Virus record (IMG/VR): IMGVR_UViG_3300034355_000190
Coordinates: 1 to 30,456 of that record
Reading direction: 5' to 3' (one strand)
DNA: 30,456 nt
From: a virus
Lineage: Duplodnaviria > Caudoviricetes
Both the position numbers and the translations under genes were made by a program. This document shows positions 1 through 21,060 of this stretch, in pieces. How positions within the stretch are numbered: the first letter of the stretch is position 1; each line of letters opens with the position of its first letter. The notes beneath the pieces are model-generated. The model saw only the letters and a program-made list of their open reading frames with translations, was not told the DNA's origin and searched no databases.

Positions 1-3000
1 CCAGCCACGGTACGGCCAATGCCAGAGGTGGGAGGCTTGGGCTTTCCGAGGCGGTTTCCAGTGGGGGGAGGCTTGGGACGGCTCTCTGCCTTTCCTCCAC
101 CGAAGCGGACAATCTGCTGGTCGTCGGGAACGTCTTGGGTTTCCCAAGGGCGACGGGCGCGGCGTTCTTCCGGCGTCATGTCGCGGCGGGTCTGGACGTT
201 GCGGGCTTCGGTTTCTCCAGCGAGACGGCGGTAGGCGGCATAGGGGCTAAGTTCAGCCTTTGCCTTTTCAAGAGCTTGCTTGAATGTCATGCCATCAGAT
301 TGGTATTTTGTTGTTAGCGCGACGACCTCTTCTTGTTGTTGCATGAGGTCTGGCATTTTTTCGGGTGACCCGCCGCGCGCAAACCCTTCTCGCGCCTGAA
401 TGCCATGCTGATACTCATGCAGCGCAATGGAGCGAGGATCAGACGAGCCCTTGCCGATGTGAAGGCTTTCGATGGGCGAACCCGACCCCATGAATGCGCC
501 TTCGTCCGCTCTGCCCGACCGCATGACGCGAACGTCGCCCAAGTCCTGCATTCCAGGTACGTCGCGGTATGCTTTGAACATGCCGTCAGGGTGGGTAAGG
601 TAGTCCCGTCCATTGCCAATTTCGTTGAACGTGGAGCGGCTATCATCAATCTCAAACCGCGCCTTGCCATCGGGCGAGTGCTTGCCCGCAACAGCGCCAG
701 CATAGGGAGTGCCTTCCAGATGCTTCGACGTAGCGTCCCAGATTTCATCGCGCGAGGCTCCACGCGCCGCCATCTGTTCCGCCATGTCGAGGGCCTGCTG
801 CGGACGCTTCTCGCCCTTCGCTGCGAGAGTGTCAGCGCCGCGACGGCCTCCGAACGTGCCTTGATCTGGCGTCCTGCCCCTTGGCGGTCCCTTCGCCCCA
901 CCCGCCCCACCGAGGCGGTTGCCAATTGCACGAGCGCCGCGACCCATGACGCCGCCAGTGATAGCCGCACCCGCACGCTCGCCAAAGCTGACCTCTCCAT
1001 CGCCGTCAGCGTCAGGCGCAAAGACTGTACCAAGGCCAGCGCCTATCGCCTCGGGCTGGCCTCTCACACCAGCTAGAAGCTTGGAGCTTTGTGTTTCTGA
1101 GGGGTCGAAGGCGGCGTCAGGTGAGCGAACATTCTTCGGGTTGAAAATGACGGTTTCCTGCCCGTCTCCGATGCCGCGAATGCCCTTGAAGCCAGCCGCC
1201 TGAATGACCTCGCTGGCTCTGGCGTCGGCTAGTATTTTATCATCTCCATCGACGGAGCGACGGAGCGCCTCCCAGAATGCCTCGCCCTCTCGCTTGTACC
1301 AGTTTTTCAGCGCGGCAAGCTTCTCGCGCTCGTTCGGTTTAAGTTGCTTGATGATACGCTGTTCGACATCATCACTCAACGAGTTCCAGCTTGGCATGGC
1401 GTCGAAAAGCTGGTCATTCGTCGGCACAACGTAAGGTTTCGCCTCGCCGTACTTACCCGCAACGCCGGGCTGTTCCGAGAAGTAAACGCCGGGACCAAAA
1501 CGCCCACGCTCTGACGTTTGGAACTCGTCAAAGCCGCCGCTTTTGCTGCTTCCGTGATAGACGCGATTATCGACATCAAACCCCTGCTCTCTCGCTCTCT
1601 GCATTCGAGAGGGCTCATCCATAGGCAGAGATGGCTTCCCGCCTCCGAGGCCGTTCCTCACTGGTGGGGGCCTTGAAGCGCCAGAAGCAGGAGGCGGTCC
1701 CTTGGGCGTGGAGCCCCTCGCGAGACGGCCTGCACCAGCGCCGAGAGCGCCACCGCCCGCAGCGCCGAACAGCGCGTTCATGAGCTGCTGGTTCTCGTCA
1801 TCGGCAGGAGCCATAGCCCCAAGGACGCCGCCAGCAACTATGCCCGTGCCGGTCGCAGAGGCTGACGAGGTCGTGCCGGGCGGGCTGCCACCGGGGCCAC
1901 GCGGGCGGCGACGCGGAGCAGGAGGCGGTGCAGCAACCGCAGCAGGTTGAGCCGGAGGGATCAACCCCTTCTCAGCCATGCGCGCTTCAACGCGACGGAT
2001 GACCTCGTTGAGATTGCCCTCGGTCATCGGCTTCCCGATGAGCGGGATCAGGGCGCGGTTCACTTCCTCATCGTAGACGCCAGGATAGCGGAGACGCTGG
2101 TAGATGTCCTTCGCCGTGCGTGCGATCGGCTTGACGGCCACATCGTTGACAAGGCCCGGCAGAGAGAACTGGTTGCCCGAGGTTTCGACACGGTCGAGCA
2201 CGCGCGTGACGGCGTCCTCGCCTTCCATGCCGGCGTCACGGATAGCAGCCTGACGCATCGCCGTGTCAGAACCACCTGCAACGCGCCTGCCCCACTCACG
2301 GTTTGCGCCAAGCCTGCGGATTGTCTCCTCGAACATATCGGCAGCCTTCTGGCTACCGAGCGCCGTCGCCATGTTCTTGAGCGCCTTGTCCTTCAGGAGC
2401 TTTGTCAGCGCGCTCTGGTTGTTGGCCTCGATCAGATCCTCGATGTTGCGGGCGACGCCCATTGCAAGGGCTTCGATCTCGCCTGCGGTCCAAGGCGAGC
2501 CATTGCGGCCTTTCGCCATGTCGCGCTGAAGTTCCCACGTTTTCTTGTTCAGCGCCTGAGTGCCGACATCAAAGGCATCTTCCAGACGTTTGACATCCTC
2601 AAACACGCCGAGCGCATTACCGTACTCGCCGCCCGTGGCTTGGCTCACGCTGTCGGCAAAGTTGCGCTTCGTTCCGCCAACAATGCGGGCTGTGTCCGAA
2701 CCAAATCCAGCATTTGCGATGACATCGTCAAAGGCGCGCTTTGTGTAGTCCAGCGCCATCGTCGTCGGAATGGCTGTGCCGCGAACAGGATCGGCCATGA
2801 AGTCGTCGATCGACTTGACCGCTGCCTGAGCACGCTGCGATTCCATAGTGGCACGCTCAGACGCCCCGCGCGCCGCACGCGCCTGAAGGTCAGCCGCTAC
2901 TGAAGCAAGGTTGTTGCGAGCAGCCTGAAGGGCCTTCTGCCCGCTCGGCGTGTTCAGAACCGGCACGATCTCGTTGGCAAACACCTGCGGATCAACGGGG

Positions 3001-4652
3001 GTGGCATAGGCTGTGTCATAGGCTGGGGCCGCTTCAGTGCGGAGACGCGTTTCCAGCTCGTCCAGCGTGGCGACGGCGTTGTCAGCCTTCTGGCCCGTCG
3101 CGCGCGTCGCGCCCCGGCTGAGACGAGGCGACAGCTTGTCGGTGTTCTGGTTGACGAGGCCAACGAGCGCCTCTTGCAGCGGTCCCGGAGCGGCTCCACC
3201 GGCCATCTGGAGGCCACGCAGGTTCGCGCCAGAGGACTTGTCCGTCAGGGCTGCGATTTCGCCAATCGTCTCATAGACGCCGCTGTCGCCACGGCGGGCA
3301 AGCCTCGCCTGGATCTTGCGCACGTCATCCATCGTGATGCCGTCTGCCGCCAGTTTCTTTATCAGCAGATCGTCGGCGCGCTGTTCGGCGCGGGAGCGAG
3401 CGGGAACGGGCTGTGGTGCGCCTGCCGTGACCGCTGGTGCGTTTGGCGGTGTCGGGGGTACTGGCGGGGCCGTGGCGGTTTGCGGCTGTGTGGGGACTTG
3501 CTGGGCGTTCTGCGTGGCAGCGACGGCAGGGGCCACGGGAGGCATCTGCGGGGCTGGCTGACGCAGATTTGCGCCGCCCGCGTTGGTTGGCGTGGCGGGA
3601 GCGTCCAGCGCCTTGAGTGCGCGGGGGACAGCACGAGCAGCTTCGATGCTAACGTAGTTGAGCGGGTCAGCAGCGCTCCGCGTGCCGGCCATGTTGCGGT
3701 CAGACCCCGCAGGCGCAGCGCCTGCGCCCACTCCGTAAGCCAGAGCCGCGTTCTCGCCAGTCTCAACGCCAACGCCACGAAGCGTCCGCGACATCCCCGG
3801 AACGGTCGCTAAAGTCTCGCTGAGCGCTTTACCCCCTTTGAGAACCGGCGCTCCAAATCCGGTAAAGATAGAAGCGCCAATACCCGTAACATCGGCAAGC
3901 ATTTCCCCCGGTGTGGTGGCAGCAGGTATCGGAAGGCTAGGAAGAATATCGTTCATGGCTTGCTGGCTGTTCTCAACATAGCCGCCCTGCGTGGCCGCAG
4001 TCGCCAGACGCTCGGGCGCATCGCTATCGCCCCTGTAAAACTCCTGCGCAGCGACCGCGCCGCCCATGGCTGGATCAAACGCAGCGCCATAAGCGTTCGC
4101 AGTATTGAGGCCCAATTGGCCGAGCGTGTTTGCAACGCCGATGTTGGAGTTGACGAACGCACCAGTAGCACGGCCAGCAAATCGATCCGGTCGCTCCTGG
4201 TTCAGCTCAAGCGGTCCATCCGGTCCCGTGTTCTTGAACGGGATCGGAGACGCCGCGTTCATCAGCGCAAGTTCTTCGTTGTACTTGCGCACCCTTCCGG
4301 CTTGATCGCGCTCCGGTTGCGTCGCCATCCGTTGTGCGGGCGACATCACCGGACCACGCGGCGCAGGCGGGGGCTTCAACCGCGTCGGCTGGCCTGATGT
4401 CAGCGTGCGAGCGCCCGGCATCAGCGGCAGGTTCATCGGGTCTGTCTGCGGCTTGCGGGCGTACATATCATCAAACGCCTGACCGTCGCCCCACGGGGTC
4501 GCGTCGGGCTGGGACATGGGCGCCGGCATGGTCTTCAGCATACTCGCCAGCTTGCGAGCATCAGCAGCGGCTTGCTGGTCGCCAGCCGTGGCGGCAGCGT
4601 CAGCGTTCTTCAGCGCCGCGAGAAGTTCTTCCCTGCTCAACGGTTGCTCCAT
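1..4652 (-). CDS. Giant DNA-ejection / polyvalent protein, >1550 aa, truncated by the window edge; ART-like, LPD23-like and HExxH metallopeptidase domains
   Basis: Absent from the ORF track because there is no stop in the window. Starts at ATG 4652 (MEQPLSREELLAALKNAD) or TTG 4640 after GGAG. I translated most of 1-1860 and several upstream blocks by hand without meeting a stop, and the track has no closed ORF in this frame. Motifs: VYHGS..GPGVYFS..GFKGI..QETVIFNPKNVRSPDAAFDP; EIWDAT..DGKARFEIDDS; LHEYQHGIQAREGFARGGSP; YRRLAGETEARNVQTR. Lies directly after two ejection-type genes. Confidence 0.88.
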   Translation of the reverse strand, partial: MEQPLSREELLAALKNADAAATAGDQQAAADARKLASMLKTMPAPMSQPDATPWGDGQAFDDMYARKPQTDPMNLPLMPGARTLTSGQPTRLKPPPAPRGPVMSPAQRMATQPERDQAGRVRKYNEELALMNAASPIPFKNTGPDGPLELNQERPDRFAGRATGAFVNSNIGVANTLGQLGLNTANAYGAAFDPAMGGAVAAQEFYRGDSDAPERLATAATQGGYVENSQQAMNDILPSLPIPAATTPGEMLADVTGIGASIFTGFGAPVLKGGKALSETLATVPGMSRTLRGVGVETGENAALAYGVGAGAAPAGSDRNMAGTRSAADPLNYVSIEAARAVPRALKALDAPATPTNAGGANLRQPAPQMPPVAPAVAATQNAQQVPTQPQTATAPPVPPTPPNAPAVTAGAPQPVPARSRAEQRADDLLIKKLAADGITMDDVRKIQARLARRGDSGVYETIGEIAALTDKSSGANLRGLQMAGGAAPGPLQEALVGLVNQNTDKLSPRLSRGATRATGQKADNAVATLDELETRLRTEAAPAYDTAYATPVDPQVFANEIVPVLNTPSGQKALQAARNNLASVAADLQARAARGASERATMESQRAQAAVKSIDDFMADPVRGTAIPTTMALDYTKRAFDDVIANAGFGSDTARIVGGTKRNFADSVSQATGGEYGNALGVFEDVKRLEDAFDVGTQALNKKTWELQRDMAKGRNGSPWTAGEIEALAMGVARNIEDLIEANNQSALTKLLKDKALKNMATALGSQKAADMFEETIRRLGANREWGRRVAGGSDTAMRQAAIRDAGMEGEDAVTRVLDRVETSGNQFSLPGLVNDVAVKPIARTAKDIYQRLRYPGVYDEEVNRALIPLIGKPMTEGNLNEVIRRVEARMAEKGLIPPAQPAAVAAPPPAPRRRPRGPGGSPPGTTSSASATGTGIVAGGVLGAMAPADDENQQLMNALFGAAGGGALGAGAGRLARGSTPKGPPPASGASRPPPVRNGLGGGKPSLPMDEPSRMQRAREQGFDVDNRVYHGSSKSGGFDEFQTSERGRFGPGVYFSEQPGVAGKYGEAKPYVVPTNDQLFDAMPSWNSLSDDVEQRIIKQLKPNEREKLAALKNWYKREGEAFWEALRRSVDGDDKILADARASEVIQAAGFKGIRGIGDGQETVIFNPKNVRSPDAAFDPSETQSSKLLAGVRGQPEAIGAGLGTVFAPDADGDGEVSFGERAGAAITGGVMGRGARAIGNRLGGAGGAKGPPRGRTPDQGTFGGRRGADTLAAKGEKRPQQALDMAEQMAARGASRDEIWDATSKHLEGTPYAGAVAGKHSPDGKARFEIDDSRSTFNEIGNGRDYLTHPDGMFKAYRDVPGMQDLGDVRVMRSGRADEGAFMGSGSPIESLHIGKGSSDPRSIALHEYQHGIQAREGFARGGSPEKMPDLMQQQEEVVALTTKYQSDGMTFKQALEKAKAELSPYAAYRRLAGETEARNVQTRRDMTPEERRARRPWETQDVPDDQQIVRFGGGKAESRPKPPPTGNRLGKPKPPTSGIGRTVA

Positions 4653-16538: not shown

Positions 16539-17087
16539 TTATCGGATGAACTTCAGAAGCGTCATTGGCTTCTGGTAGTGCTCGTAAATCTCTGTCGCGG
16601 CCTGGATCAGCACGAAGCCGTGCGCCGCAAATGCTTCGGCGTATTCGGACGGCTCGCGGTTGAAGACGGGCGGATCACCCTCACGCCGCCACTCCCTGCC
16701 CATCATCTCGCTGACGTAGACAACCGGCGCTTTCATCCGGCCAATCAGCGCGTCCAGTTCGTCGTCAGGGACGTGCATCAGGACGGTATGGATCAGGTAC
16801 ACGTCGCCTTGCGGAAACTCGTCCTGCACCACGTCAAATGCATGGAGAGGGTTTCTCTCGATCGCCTCGGCAATGCTCCGCTCGTTCAGGTCAACGCCAA
16901 GGTAGGCGTGCGGCTTGAATGCGCAGGCCAGTCGTCCCGGCCCGCATCCGATCTCGACCACGAAGCCATGCGAGGCGACTTCAGCAAGATACGGCAGCAG
17001 CCACGCGCCTTCCGGGTTAGCCTTGCCTGCTGGGGTAATGTGGCGAACGCCGTTCTGTGCTCGCCAGAAATCCGCAGCTAGTTCCAT
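16539..17087 (-). CDS. Class I SAM-dependent methyltransferase, 182 aa
   Basis: VVEIGCGPGR (motif I), YLGVDL (motif II), HTVLMHVPD. Confidence 0.85.
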   Translation of the reverse strand: MELAADFWRAQNGVRHITPAGKANPEGAWLLPYLAEVASHGFVVEIGCGPGRLACAFKPHAYLGVDLNERSIAEAIERNPLHAFDVVQDEFPQGDVYLIHTVLMHVPDDELDALIGRMKAPVVYVSEMMGREWRREGDPPVFNREPSEYAEAFAAHGFVLIQAATEIYEHYQKPMTLLKFIR

Positions 17088-18451
17088 AAGGCTGTCTCAT
17101 GTGGCCGCGGCTGGCCGTGATAGAAGACGACACGCGCATCGTCAGGAACACCGTCCCCGCATTGCGCCTTGAAGCTCACAAGCTGGCCCGGCACGATGTC
17201 CTGTAACCGCATCGCCATCGGCATGTGCTGCCCGATGAACGCCTGATCTCCACGCGGGTCATCGGTCGGGCAACCAGCGTCCTGCCATGCCTGCCAGACA
17301 TGATCCGCCTCGCCTGCCGTCCAGCTCATGATGCCTGAGCCCATCTGGCCCGGCTGCCACACGTCACGCAGGCCAGCGAACGGGCCGTCGTAATCCATGA
17401 GGTCGGTCAGATCCCCGGTGATGACCGTGTCCAGATCGAAGTAGACGCAGCGCTCGCCCTTGTTGAACCGGCCAGGCTCAAACATCTGCATCTTTGCCCA
17501 CCAGTTCGCAGGCCCTTCACGCAGGACATGGAACTTGGCCTTGCCCTGATAGTTCTTCGCCACACCGCTGAGCAGGTGCGAGACGTAGTCCTCGCCCCGT
17601 CCGAGATAATTTCCCGTGGCGACGCATATGACGTTCAGCGGCTTCGTCGAGGCCCGGCGCGGCCAGTTGGCGATGAGGTTAGCGCGCTCCCGCACCATGC
17701 TCTGAAGCAGCCCGTCGCCGTGGAAGTTGACCACAGGCTTGTCCGCATCCAGCGCGAACACTTCCTGCATCTGGAACCAGTCCGTGCATTGCGTCAGGAA
17801 ATTGTTGTCCGTGACGTAGCCGTTGATCTCGATCGTTCCGACCGTGCCATCCCTGCTGTCGGGATAGGCATGGGTCTGTGCGCCGCGATACGACGAATCC
17901 AGCCCGTGCATCTCGAATTTGCGGAACCCCATGTAATGACCGAGGTTGAGCCAGCGGATGCCCATCGTGGTCCCGCCTGCAATCATCGGCGTGCCGCGGG
18001 GGAGTGTTTCGCTGATCCCAGGGGCTCCGCTCGGATGCCAGAGGACGACCTTGCTGGTCTTCAGCTTGTCAAAGACGCTCGGATGGCAGGTGGACGCCAC
18101 GAAGTAGAACACGTCAGGATGCGGCTCGATCAGGTCCGCGATGTGCGGGCGAGCGTCCAGCAGGCCACAGGCCCAAGGCGTGATGGATTGCTCCAGAAGA
18201 TAACCCAGACCCGCATTGGCCGTGACAATGACGCCTTTGAGGTCATGGACTGTGTCCCTGAGAGAAGGGCCACCGCCCGCAACAGTCAGGGTATGACCGT
18301 GCGGGCGGCAGTGTTGCGGCATAGGCAGGCCCCGCCCCAGCGCCGAACGGACGTGCTCAAGCATCGTCTTGTTCGGCGTGGATACTTTCGGCGGGACCAT
18401 CGAGAGGACACGGGCAGCCGCGCCCGCGCCTCCGTCAGTTGCTCTCATCAC
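17078..18451 (-). CDS. Two-domain glycosyltransferase: Maf/DUF115-like N-terminal domain fused to a GT8-like GT-A domain, 457 aa
   Basis: N-domain: VAGGGPSL..TAN..LDAR..ASTCHP..GGTT.G..GFRKFEMHGLDSSY. C-domain: WWAKMQMF..YFDLDTVITGDL (DxD)..GDQAFI..VVFYHGQPRPHE. Confidence 0.78.
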   Translation of the reverse strand: MMRATDGGAGAAARVLSMVPPKVSTPNKTMLEHVRSALGRGLPMPQHCRPHGHTLTVAGGGPSLRDTVHDLKGVIVTANAGLGYLLEQSITPWACGLLDARPHIADLIEPHPDVFYFVASTCHPSVFDKLKTSKVVLWHPSGAPGISETLPRGTPMIAGGTTMGIRWLNLGHYMGFRKFEMHGLDSSYRGAQTHAYPDSRDGTVGTIEINGYVTDNNFLTQCTDWFQMQEVFALDADKPVVNFHGDGLLQSMVRERANLIANWPRRASTKPLNVICVATGNYLGRGEDYVSHLLSGVAKNYQGKAKFHVLREGPANWWAKMQMFEPGRFNKGERCVYFDLDTVITGDLTDLMDYDGPFAGLRDVWQPGQMGSGIMSWTAGEADHVWQAWQDAGCPTDDPRGDQAFIGQHMPMAMRLQDIVPGQLVSFKAQCGDGVPDDARVVFYHGQPRPHETALWN

Positions 18452-18991: not shown

Positions 18992-19803
18992 TCAAGGCGA
19001 AGAATCGTAGATCTTGAACGTGTGGACCGGGTTCTTCAGGACGACTTCGCCCATGAAGCCCAAATGTTGCACAATTGCATCCTGGTTGATCGGCATCTGC
19101 CGGCCACCGAAGCGCTCGAAGTTCCGCTGCGGGTTGTAGAAGAACTTGAGGTCTTCCATTGAGACGCCGTAGGTCACGTCATCCGGCATGGCCGAGCCAA
19201 CGCCGCCTTCGAGCACCACGTCGATCGACTTGCCAGCCCCATAATATTTCATGGCGCTGAAACCGCCTTTGCCGAGGCCGTTCTCATCGTTGATCCGCTG
19301 GATCGCCGTGAGGGCCGCGTCATACGCCTGATAGTGCTGCGTGGAGCAGACCAGCAGGTCGGGGCCTTTCTTGCCGCGCGAACGGGCGAACACCGCGTTG
19401 TTGAACAGCGGGCGGATGGTCGTCGATGTGACCGCCGTAATCGCCGTGCCGGCAACAGTGATGGAGTTCGCGTTGTAGGTCGTCGTGCGCCACTGGGTAT
19501 TGCTTACCCGGCTGATGCCGCCATACGAACCCGTCGAGGTCGTCGTCGGGATGGCAAGCTGCAAGCCGCCGATCTGGTTGTCAGCCGAACCTGCCGAGTG
19601 CATGTCTTCAACGAAGCGGTCCTGAAGTTCGGTTTCCGCCGCGTCGATGTGCATCTCGAACACGTCTTCAAGCTGGTTCGATCCGGCGTTTTGCAGGATC
19701 TCCTGGCCGGTCAGCATCATCGAAACGGCGCCCATCTTGGGGGTAAATTCCGCATCATTGAAGAGGTCGGTCGGGTTGGGTGAGAGGAATTGCGCGCCTT
19801 GGT
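18992..19803 (-). CDS. Major capsid protein, exon 2
   Basis: The frame extends upstream of the track's ATG 19735 as (T)AC CAA GGC = Y-QGAQFLSPNPTDLFNDAEFTPKMGAVS; capsid-like GQEILQNAG, IGGLQ, YGGISR...WR, PINQDA. The joined CDS is 199+812 = 1011 nt = 336 aa. Confidence 0.9.
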
Positions 19804-19983
19804 CAGTATTGTTATCGCGCGGCGTTTAAGCAGCGCTTCTGCATCTTCCGTAACGTTGATGCAGCTCAGACTATATCATCGCCGTTGTTGCGGCGTCGGG
19901 CGCTCGTGGGCGGGTTATTCTTTCGTCACCGCCTAGTCGTTGCACCTTCCGCATCCCTGACCCTTTCGGGCTACGTATGCGGC

Positions 19984-20012
19984 TTGGCTCAGGATTGTCG
20001 ATCCGGTATAAC
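19984..20012 (+). promoter_or_regulatory. Candidate sigma70 promoter for the intron HNH gene, antisense to the ribozyme
   Basis: TTGGCT (19984-19989), 17-nt spacer, TATAAC (20007-20012), about 75 nt upstream of the GTG start. Confidence 0.6.
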
Positions 20013-20086
20013 AAGAACGGTTCTTGCTCTGCCGGGATACGTCGGTTTTCCCTGAGTTCACCCGATTATTCGATTTGGAGTCGTCC

Positions 20087-20842
20087 GTGCCAAAGATCGT
20101 CAAGACGTGTGTTCGATGTGGTGATGACTTCTCAGTCTGGCCCTCGCGCGTGAAGTGGCAGGAAGCGCGTGGCCTTGAGGTCAAGTTCTGCTCTCAAGCC
20201 TGTACCGCAGCAGCGCGGTCTGAAGGCTTGATCGCTTCCCGTAAGCGCGAGGGCGAAGAGGTGCCGTGCGCGACGTGCGGTAAGCTGGTCTACATGAAGC
20301 AGTTCAGGCTGAAGACAAACACTCTTCACTTTTGCTCTCAGAAGTGTCGCACGAAAGCGATTTCCGAGAACCGCGTTGACCGCAAATTCGAGCAGGCGAG
20401 CGAGAAGAAGAGGACCGGCAAGTCATTCGCCTGCCGCATATGCGGCGAGAAGAAGTACCAGCGGATTTCCTATTACAACCGGAACGTCAACAAGACTTGC
20501 GGCAAGAGCGAGTGCGTATCTGCCTATGCCCGTAGTCGCTGGGGTCTTCCGCCCTGTTCGACCAACCATAGAAGAAGGTCAGCCGCGAGAGGAAAACTGC
20601 CACAACCGAAGCGAGCATCCAACTTCACAGCCAAACAGAAGGTTGAGTGGTTGGGTTGTAAGTGCGCTCGCTGCGGCACGACCGAGAACTTGGCTCTTGA
20701 TCACATCCTTGCAGTTTGTGCAGGCGGACTATCGACCAGGGACAATGCCCAGACGCTTTGTCAGCCGTGCAATAACTGGAAGTCTAAACACGTCGATATG
20801 CCCTTGGCGCGGGCAAAGAACAAACTCCGAAAAGCGGCTTAG
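20087..20842 (+). CDS. Intron-encoded HNH homing endonuclease with three N-terminal zinc-ribbon units, 251 aa, antisense to the host gene
   Basis: GGAG 20077-20080 then GTG 20087; three CxxCG..C...C units; C-terminal CARCGTTENLALDHILAVCAGG..DNAQTLCQPCNNWK HNH-type motif. Confidence 0.88.
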   Translation: MPKIVKTCVRCGDDFSVWPSRVKWQEARGLEVKFCSQACTAAARSEGLIASRKREGEEVPCATCGKLVYMKQFRLKTNTLHFCSQKCRTKAISENRVDRKFEQASEKKRTGKSFACRICGEKKYQRISYYNRNVNKTCGKSECVSAYARSRWGLPPCSTNHRRRSAARGKLPQPKRASNFTAKQKVEWLGCKCARCGTTENLALDHILAVCAGGLSTRDNAQTLCQPCNNWKSKHVDMPLARAKNKLRKAA

Positions 20843-20861
20843 TGGAGGCGATCCACGGTTA

Positions 20862-21060
20862 ACCGAGTATACGAGCCCGTCTCGTTGTAGAGCTGACGGA
20901 CGCGGATGGTTGGGCCGGAGTAGGTCTTGAAGCCCCCCCGGTTGCGCATGACGAAGAGGATGGCGTTGGCGTTGCTGACGAGGTCTTGCGTCCCCGGAGC
21001 ACGGTATTCCAGCGCCAGCGAGAAAGCTTCTCCAAGCTTCTCAACTGTTGTGAGTGCCAT
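20862..21060 (-). CDS. Major capsid protein, exon 1
   Basis: MALTTVEKL..DLVSNANAIL..KTYSGPTIRVRQLYNETGSYTR plus one T; directly follows the scaffold gene and joins exon 2 in frame. Confidence 0.9.

Follow-up and report, generated by a model that had tools for sequence, protein, structure and literature searches.

How can a homing endonuclease gene that lies backwards in an intron of a major capsid gene be expressed, and what holds it in that orientation? The question is raised by a virus record of 30,456 bases (the window, meaning the whole stretch of DNA analyzed), which carries a minus-strand structural module with portal, head protein, capsid and tail genes and a probable scaffold gene, assigned by position. 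Sequence analysis and comparison with relatives establish the group I intron, the antisense ORF, the purifying selection acting on it and a covarying P2 helix. Beyond these, we consider it probable that the ORF, a zinc-finger HNH gene lying backwards in P2, has a host-type promoter of its own, predicted in P5, and likely represses itself through a copy of its target, in a capsid intron of a likely temperate podophage.

The intron and its host gene

The best match of the capsid protein among annotated phages is from a Rhizobium phage (45%). An integrase is encoded in the record of L042, the nearest relative to share the nuclease, and two members of the nuclease-intron family (L380 and L383) come from records with a provirus classification. 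From these three points, the source is likely a temperate podophage of an alphaproteobacterium. Elsewhere in the window, a large open-ended protein (3-4652, minus strand) matches LPD23 and, below threshold, ART-PolyVal, as is typical for polyvalent virion proteins, and MptE-like and methyltransferase genes (16539-18451, minus strand) are inserted in the structural module right after the capsid and decoration genes.

The capsid gene is split on the minus strand into exon 1 (20862..21060; 66 codons and the first base of a Tyr codon), delimited by splice reconstruction and aligning with the N-terminus of intronless capsid genes, and exon 2 (18992..19803), which matches the PHROG 9953 major head protein (E 6.9e-53) and 40 related loci. 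Between them lies a group I intron of 1,058 nt with a P7.1 insertion (20861-19804, minus strand), recognized by Rfam RF00028 and by pairing and covariation in seven introns. The Intron_gpI hit on the minus strand (E 2.1e-9) was the single Rfam match in the window and scored 47.8 bits against a gathering score of 50, and six relatives score above the gathering score. We take the intron to be IA-like. Its catalytic core, P3-P9 with a conserved P7, occupies 19839..20065 on the minus strand according to Rfam and the alignment of seven introns; blastn gave 0 matches to the core among annotated phages. Removal of the intron restores the host reading frame. Nine U/G boundary pairs would do so, and the pair 20862/19803 yields a 336-aa protein with U at position -1 and a terminal G, and the junction in this protein conforms to the Arg-Tyr-x-Gly pattern seen in intron-free relatives.

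Covariation was assessed on a MAFFT alignment of the seven introns, not fitted to structure. For 54 named pairs in 10 helices, including P1, P3, P4, P6a, P7, P7.1, P8 and P9, 97.8% of the cells pair, and two-sided changes were found at 22 of the 54 pairs against 9.7 in shuffles; the pairs were named from the window's own sequence, which biases the count in its favor over slid controls. The internal guide sequence, the 3′ strand of P1 (20835..20838, minus strand), pairs with exon 20862-20865. The U-G at the splice site is present in all seven introns, and the guide pairing includes a C-G to A-U change in two of them. Read on the plus strand, the guide sequence lies in the last two codons of the HNH ORF, as described in the initial annotation, and in many relatives the HNH stop codon lies at or past the 5′ splice site. 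A canonical P10 was not established for this intron. Directly after the nuclease stop is a small P1-loop hairpin (window 20842-20856), kept in the closest relatives and without a U tract on either strand.

In three contigs from riverine metatranscriptomes the two exons are joined, with no coverage of the intron. Upstream of 20887 two of them are 99.5% identical to the window, but they mismatch it at 10 of the 27 bases around the junction and over about 6% of exon 2; for the third contig the count is 6 of 15 bases. Because their junctions differ from this allele and the intron is not covered, they are best read as derived from intron-free alleles, apparently relatives rather than spliced copies of this intron. 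The local divergence at the junction could reflect a co-conversion tract or, alternatively, escape from cutting. One contig from an RNA library covers both intron and nuclease at about 92% identity, carries no strand information and may be DNA, and none of the 24 RNA runs listed contained half of the query words.

The antisense HNH gene

The ORF (20087..20842, plus strand) is intact and lies opposite to the intron strand, between P1 and P3 as first described and within P2, and has Pfam matches to HNH_5, HNH and zf-FCS. It encodes a putative homing endonuclease of 251 aa, with three Cys4 zinc-finger modules followed by an HNH domain (D205, H206, N220, N229); the assignment draws on Pfam, aligned homologs, dN/dS and a structural model. 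The GTG start at 20087 is preceded by a Shine-Dalgarno-like (SD) GGAG (20077..20080, plus strand; 6 nt before the GTG) and agrees with most homologs in one search, which returned 44 homologs, 41 of which were aligned. A longer start at TTG 20024 is disfavored because most homologs begin at the GTG position. The promoter and terminator scan of the window listed no terminator after the gene.

In the predicted structure (pLDDT 86, pTM 0.54), three small zinc modules are joined to a C-terminal HNH domain. The best PDB sequence match is 4h9d (E 2.9e-9), titled nicking endonuclease, and since this match is an HNH nickase, the putative nuclease likely nicks DNA. Zinc-ribbon HNH nickases of this kind share an HNH domain with two CxxC motifs but are short and have 3-7 bp specificity, according to the part of the source consulted (PMC3592412), whereas the present protein has three extra zinc modules and is encoded in an intron. 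Foldseek returned 0 matches at E 0.001 or better, and a search of annotated phages with the HNH protein gave only two weak HNH matches.

A long-range P2 helix built from the ends of the gene

It had been proposed that the two ends of the ORF pair on the intron strand, in a stem that includes the complement of the SD and of the GTG. The basal part of this proposal stood. Five base pairs, 20824-20828 with 20077-20081, take up the complement of the SD and have pair probabilities of 0.62-0.84 in the whole-intron partition function. The covariation check suggested for the stem was positive at this helix, where all five pairs show two-sided changes across the seven introns and 34 of 35 cells pair in the MAFFT alignment. 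The inner register first proposed, 20812-20815 with 20088-20091, gave way in the whole-intron ensemble to a pairing of 20802-20812 with 20085-20095 (probability 0.94-0.99, 20809 unpaired), with further pairing of 20788-20794 with 20104-20110. The stem is therefore longer than first proposed and still covers the start-codon complement, which falls in the favored inner pairing. The 20802-20808 part is kept in five of the seven aligned introns and shows little covariation. The 5′ arm of P2 (20788..20828, minus strand) is thus the complement of the HNH C-terminal codons, and the 3′ arm (20077..20110, minus strand) that of the SD, start codon and first codons.

The arms were further compared across loci by duplex energies, using 20 of 28 candidate loci (six had no parsed P4 motif and two no assigned guide). 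A locus's own arms gave -27.2 kcal/mol, compared with -17.8 kcal/mol for cross-locus arms (P 1e-6), and with 45/40-nt windows they beat the mean of the other loci's arms in 20 of 20 cases. Dinucleotide shuffles were beaten in 15 of the 20 loci, and the intron strand was favored over the mirror strand (P 0.001, 20 loci). Against other windows of the same ORF, the P2 duplex was significant in only 10 of 20 loci, and the window's own locus was modest in this control (P 0.03-0.11). A held-out lineage has a P2 of different sequence with an energy of -34 to -37 kcal/mol. We conclude that the basal P2 helix is genuine, and the comparative evidence establishes P2 as a covarying helix that would bring P1 beside P3 across an insert of about 750 nt.

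A predicted promoter within the ribozyme

A sigma70-type promoter of the nuclease gene is predicted on the plus strand at 19984..20012 by our own consensus scan, with a -35 TTGGCT (19984-19989), a 17-nt spacer and a -10 TATAAC (20007-20012). It lies inside ribozyme helices P6/P4/P5, approximately 75 nt before the start codon, and with our own consensus weights its score has a shuffle P of 0.01. When the best antisense site in P4-P6 was scored in the same way, it beat shuffles in 15 of 26 family introns and in 2 of 72 control introns (P 1e-6), where the weights are again our own and conservation of the ribozyme sequence accounts for part of the -35. This test left out four near-duplicate cores, the motif missed one family intron (L043), and the controls came from a pattern scan covering 20 of 64 parts of the viral collection. 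Sense-strand promoter scores showed no difference between family and control introns (P 0.58), and two nuclease-free introns of the same capsid family included in the control set (L231, L244) scored at chance. Many relatives read TTGAC-17-TA..T.

A stricter standard promoter scan listed no plus-strand promoter and one minus-strand site (20093-20065) in the window; it misses the 19984-20012 site because TATAAC lacks the last T. The last T of the -10 box is absent from many alphaproteobacterial promoters. Transcription from this promoter-like minus-strand site, which is on the strand of the intron, would run towards that from the predicted nuclease promoter; such sense-strand sites are not enriched in the family.

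Orientation across the family

Three profile scans yielded 167 loci, for which the metagenome scan supplied the best 80 of 181 matches and the genome scan the best 80 of 84. Forty-three of the 167 (rows including duplicates) also have an intron core or capsid exon, and among these the nuclease is antisense in 42, sense in none and scrambled in one (L094). In the last, the locus occurs twice on one contig, in copies that are opposed and frameshifted, and the contig looks like an assembly artefact. The remaining loci are nuclease-only, mostly distant HNH domains and some short contigs. A full-length homolog (49%; L142:2501-3256) is free-standing beside a resolvase in a Rhodobacterales genome, where no intron core, capsid exon or clear upstream target look-alike was detected.

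The insertion sites cluster at three nearby positions. The nuclease tree splits a zinc-finger clade from one that includes NUMOD3 members; in the core tree the window clusters, with modest support, with introns of the latter. The incongruence of nuclease and core trees suggests that nuclease parts have been exchanged between introns, as far as the modest tree support goes. Two divergent introns (L052, L097) occupy a third site in this capsid region, in phase 0, and have a distantly related antisense HNH; Rfam did not detect these two introns. What is likely an independent case comes from an apparently distinct capsid family (L361): an HNH ORF of another type is antisense to a related group I core (at about 1501, plus strand), sits immediately 5′ of it and has TATAGT directly before its start codon.

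Capsid genes of the present family often have two or more group I introns (L043, L047, L070, L074, L348), some with sense-strand GIY-YIG ORFs, making the gene an intron hot spot. In a partial scan, group I introns also adjoin exons of three other capsid families, Gp10A-like, SU10 and Phage_capsid_3 (L229, L266, L271, L272, L277, L278, L233, L238, L242), and on this partial scan capsid-gene introns look common in uncultured phages.

Inverted intron nucleases had been called rare, and in the control set they are indeed uncommon. Among ORFs beside control intron cores (82 of 100 listed ORFs scanned, by adjacency to the core and not by intron boundaries), nuclease-family ORFs were sense in 12 cases (11 loci) and antisense in one, a LAGLIDADG_2 ORF located 5′ of a group I core (L234:669-1421, minus strand). 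This rarity, and independent antisense cases in capsid introns (mycobacteriophage LittleE and probably L361), speak for the possibility that the orientation was selected mainly to keep a toxic nuclease off the abundant capsid mRNA. The same idea was put forward in the initial annotation as an uncoupling of the nuclease from strong capsid transcription. The idea is plausible, as antisense nucleases associate with capsid introns; uncoupling is not a requirement, since sense GIY-YIG ORFs sit in other introns of the same capsid genes (L043 above, L074 below the Pfam cut-off). Moreover, removing the controls of I-TevI did not reduce T4 viability, according to the portion of PMC2988022 that deals with it. 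We regard toxicity as the main selective force as conceivable but doubtful, and it is compatible with a gene that is autonomously expressed and self-limited.

It is somewhat unlikely that the orientation is a frozen accident without advantage, in which an ancestral nuclease landed backwards in P2 by a ready-made -35 and the promoter, the stem and the operator predicted below are later accommodations. All family members have one position and orientation in common, which is consistent with one origin; TTGGCT or TTGAC-like hexamers are found at the same place in control introns; and a nuclease-free intron at the same capsid site (L244) has a short insert at the place of P2. However, the layout persists across zinc-finger and NUMOD3 DNA-binding domains, across at least three insertion sites and across the incongruent nuclease and core trees (modest support), and unrelated nucleases reached antisense positions in other capsid introns. 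Our own reading is that the reversed gene, by selection or by accident, gained autonomous, self-limited expression.

A look-alike of a candidate exon-1 target at the predicted promoter

The predicted self-limitation would come from a 17-bp look-alike of an exon-1 site, which starts at the -10 box (20007..20023, plus strand) and may serve as an operator. Its counterpart is exon-1 positions -28 to -12 (20873..20889, minus strand), which offset scans and a held-out lineage point to as the putative binding part of the homing site. In the window 12 of 17 positions are identical, and no other site on either strand of the intron matches as well; this single-locus match is not significant, because 14 sites in the window, the site itself included, match the 17-mer at 12 or more. 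In six loci of the zinc-finger clade, 10-13 of the 17 positions of the exon 17-mer at -28 are matched in P5, and in five of them this is the single best match in the intron. The sum over these loci at offset -28 was 71, compared with 50.2 ± 1.9 elsewhere; the look-alike had been spotted by eye, post hoc, in the same six loci. In the held-out lineage, which is near-clonal, -28 ranked top of 180 exon offsets in five of six records examined (of eight), with a match of only 8-10 of 17 that is not the best in its intron. The related intron-free RNA contigs differ from the window at 6 of the 17 positions of exon-1 -28 to -12.

As a family-wide feature the operator was rejected, since the unanchored and anchored tests were weak or negative. 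The unanchored test over both clades was individually significant in 2-4 of 20 loci (L044 was mis-parsed and scored 0), and the anchored test, over 16 of 20 loci with four skipped for short exons, gave a Fisher P of 0.31. The NUMOD3 clade had no look-alike signal in the offset scan. Three loci (L043, L064, L065) lack a good -35 placed cleanly 17 nt from the look-alike.

The look-alike might instead be no operator at all: it could pair as RNA with the 5′ exon, be left over from the original site of invasion, or simply arise from the promoter consensus. The intron-strand segment is complementary to exon 1, the TA is forced by the -10 box, and the lack of signal in the NUMOD3 clade and the weakness of the general tests agree with such a view. 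Against it, G-U is possible for only 8 of the 31 mismatches, with no wobble bias, and the commonest change breaks the pairing. In addition, own targets match better than permuted ones (P 0.014, partly driven by two subgroups), and the match begins at the -10 box. We thus judge a non-operator origin unlikely, and lean towards an operator role of the look-alike in the zinc-finger clade, as suggested by these sequence matches.

Selection on the gene and its translation

Pairwise comparisons of the ORF with three relatives gave dN 0.013 and dS 0.067 (L062), 0.222 and 1.24 (L042) and 0.077 and 0.54 (L063), that is, dN/dS of about 0.14-0.19 over the whole ORF. In the 41 aligned sequences H206, N220 and N229 are invariant and D205 nearly so, and the zinc-binding residues are also conserved. 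These substitution rates establish purifying selection on the HNH ORF. That the gene is silent or decaying, with only its ends kept for P2, is very improbable given a dN/dS well below 1 across the whole ORF, conserved catalytic and zinc-binding residues and a conserved promoter signal, although the mRNA was folded at four lengths and the predicted structures have a paired SD in every case.

We also considered whether translation could begin in a kinetic window that precedes formation of the mirror stem on the mRNA. The foldings do not support this, as even short transcripts are predicted to have a paired SD; what varies with mRNA length is the start codon alone, from 0.67 to 0.0 unpaired.

Discussion

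In the explanation we prefer, the late capsid transcript would splice, and host RNA polymerase would transcribe the nuclease gene separately, on the plus strand, starting at about 20019. In the encoded protein, the N-terminal zinc fingers would bind exon-1 -28 to -12, and the C-terminal HNH domain would nick near the insertion site of intron-free alleles, which would start homing. In the donor, the intron would remove the cleavage-side sequence. Protein bound to the look-alike in P5 would cover the -10 box and limit expression, which may matter most in the lysogen.

A precedent for an inverted intron nuclease had been placed in the DNA polymerase introns of T7-like phages, but this was not confirmed in the two phages examined. 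Both phiL7 and Pf-WMP3 have, as here, phage group I introns with HNH genes, but the HNH gene of phiL7 is annotated on the polymerase strand, and that of Pf-WMP3 is sense by its described ribosome-binding site in P6b and is never called opposite in the text available. The existing precedent is the capsid intron of mycobacteriophage LittleE (PMC3706429; JF937101). In the accessible part of that report, a probable group I intron in the major capsid gene has an endonuclease ORF, gp14, on the opposite strand, as in the present locus, and splicing is demonstrated by RT-PCR and protein sequencing (PMC3706429). The LittleE ORF is described as LAGLIDADG-related (PMC3706429) and is located on the 3′ side of the core, with a start that is turned towards the 3′ splice site (record JF937101), whereas here the ORF lies in P2, encodes a three-zinc-finger HNH protein, overlaps the guide sequence and has a promoter predicted in P5. 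With nuclease type and ribozyme position both different, the present family is not of the LittleE lineage. The word "promoter" does not occur in the LittleE text available to us (PMC3706429).

For the predicted regulation, the closest parallel is I-TevI of T4, in which a look-alike of the homing site likewise overlaps the nuclease promoter, with 15 of 20 positions identical compared with 12 of 17 here (PMC2988022, in part). I-TevI is a sense-strand GIY-YIG nuclease with a phage late promoter and proven repression (same source), whereas the promoter predicted here is host-type, antisense and overlapping ribozyme helices, with an operator that is a candidate. Antisense His-Cys box genes in the nuclear rDNA introns Dsq.L2066 and Dir.S956-2 are expressed from a separate internal promoter, as is predicted here, but these are eukaryotic systems with RNA polymerase II and an rRNA host gene, and the gene of Dsq.L2066 lies in P9, as given in the sections consulted of PMC9548176. 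The Hausner review, the Bastillevirinae intron paper and the LUZ24 text, each in the part available, have no passage addressing antisense orientation, and a full-text search, with most subscription journals and all supplements outside its scope, found no paper on this antisense HNH intron family. What the present locus contributes is a P2 helix, supported by covariation, that is built from the SD and the last codons of the nuclease gene, a predicted promoter in P5 that was compared with control introns, and a candidate operator from which the target can be predicted.

More speculatively, and in our estimate with less than an even chance of being right, one stretch of catalytic RNA may be read in three ways: as the P4-P5-P6 helices, and on the opposite strand as a host promoter and as an operator that mimics the capsid target. 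A temperate phage could in this manner keep a self-limited pool of nuclease in the lysogen, which would nick incoming intron-free capsid genes before late transcription, and alleles would diversify at this position to escape.

How an antisense intron nuclease is expressed without harm to the host transcript is described as an open question for nuclear introns (PMC9548176, in the part consulted) and is unaddressed for LittleE. The present family offers testable bacterial answers, namely a predicted promoter that lies within the ribozyme, an operator and a 17-bp recognition site, both likewise predicted, and a helix, supported by covariation, that takes in the SD and last codons. Since one member is found in a cultured Sinorhizobium genome (L143) and others in proviral records, such tests are feasible, and the three-finger HNH protein may prove to be a new long-site nickase.
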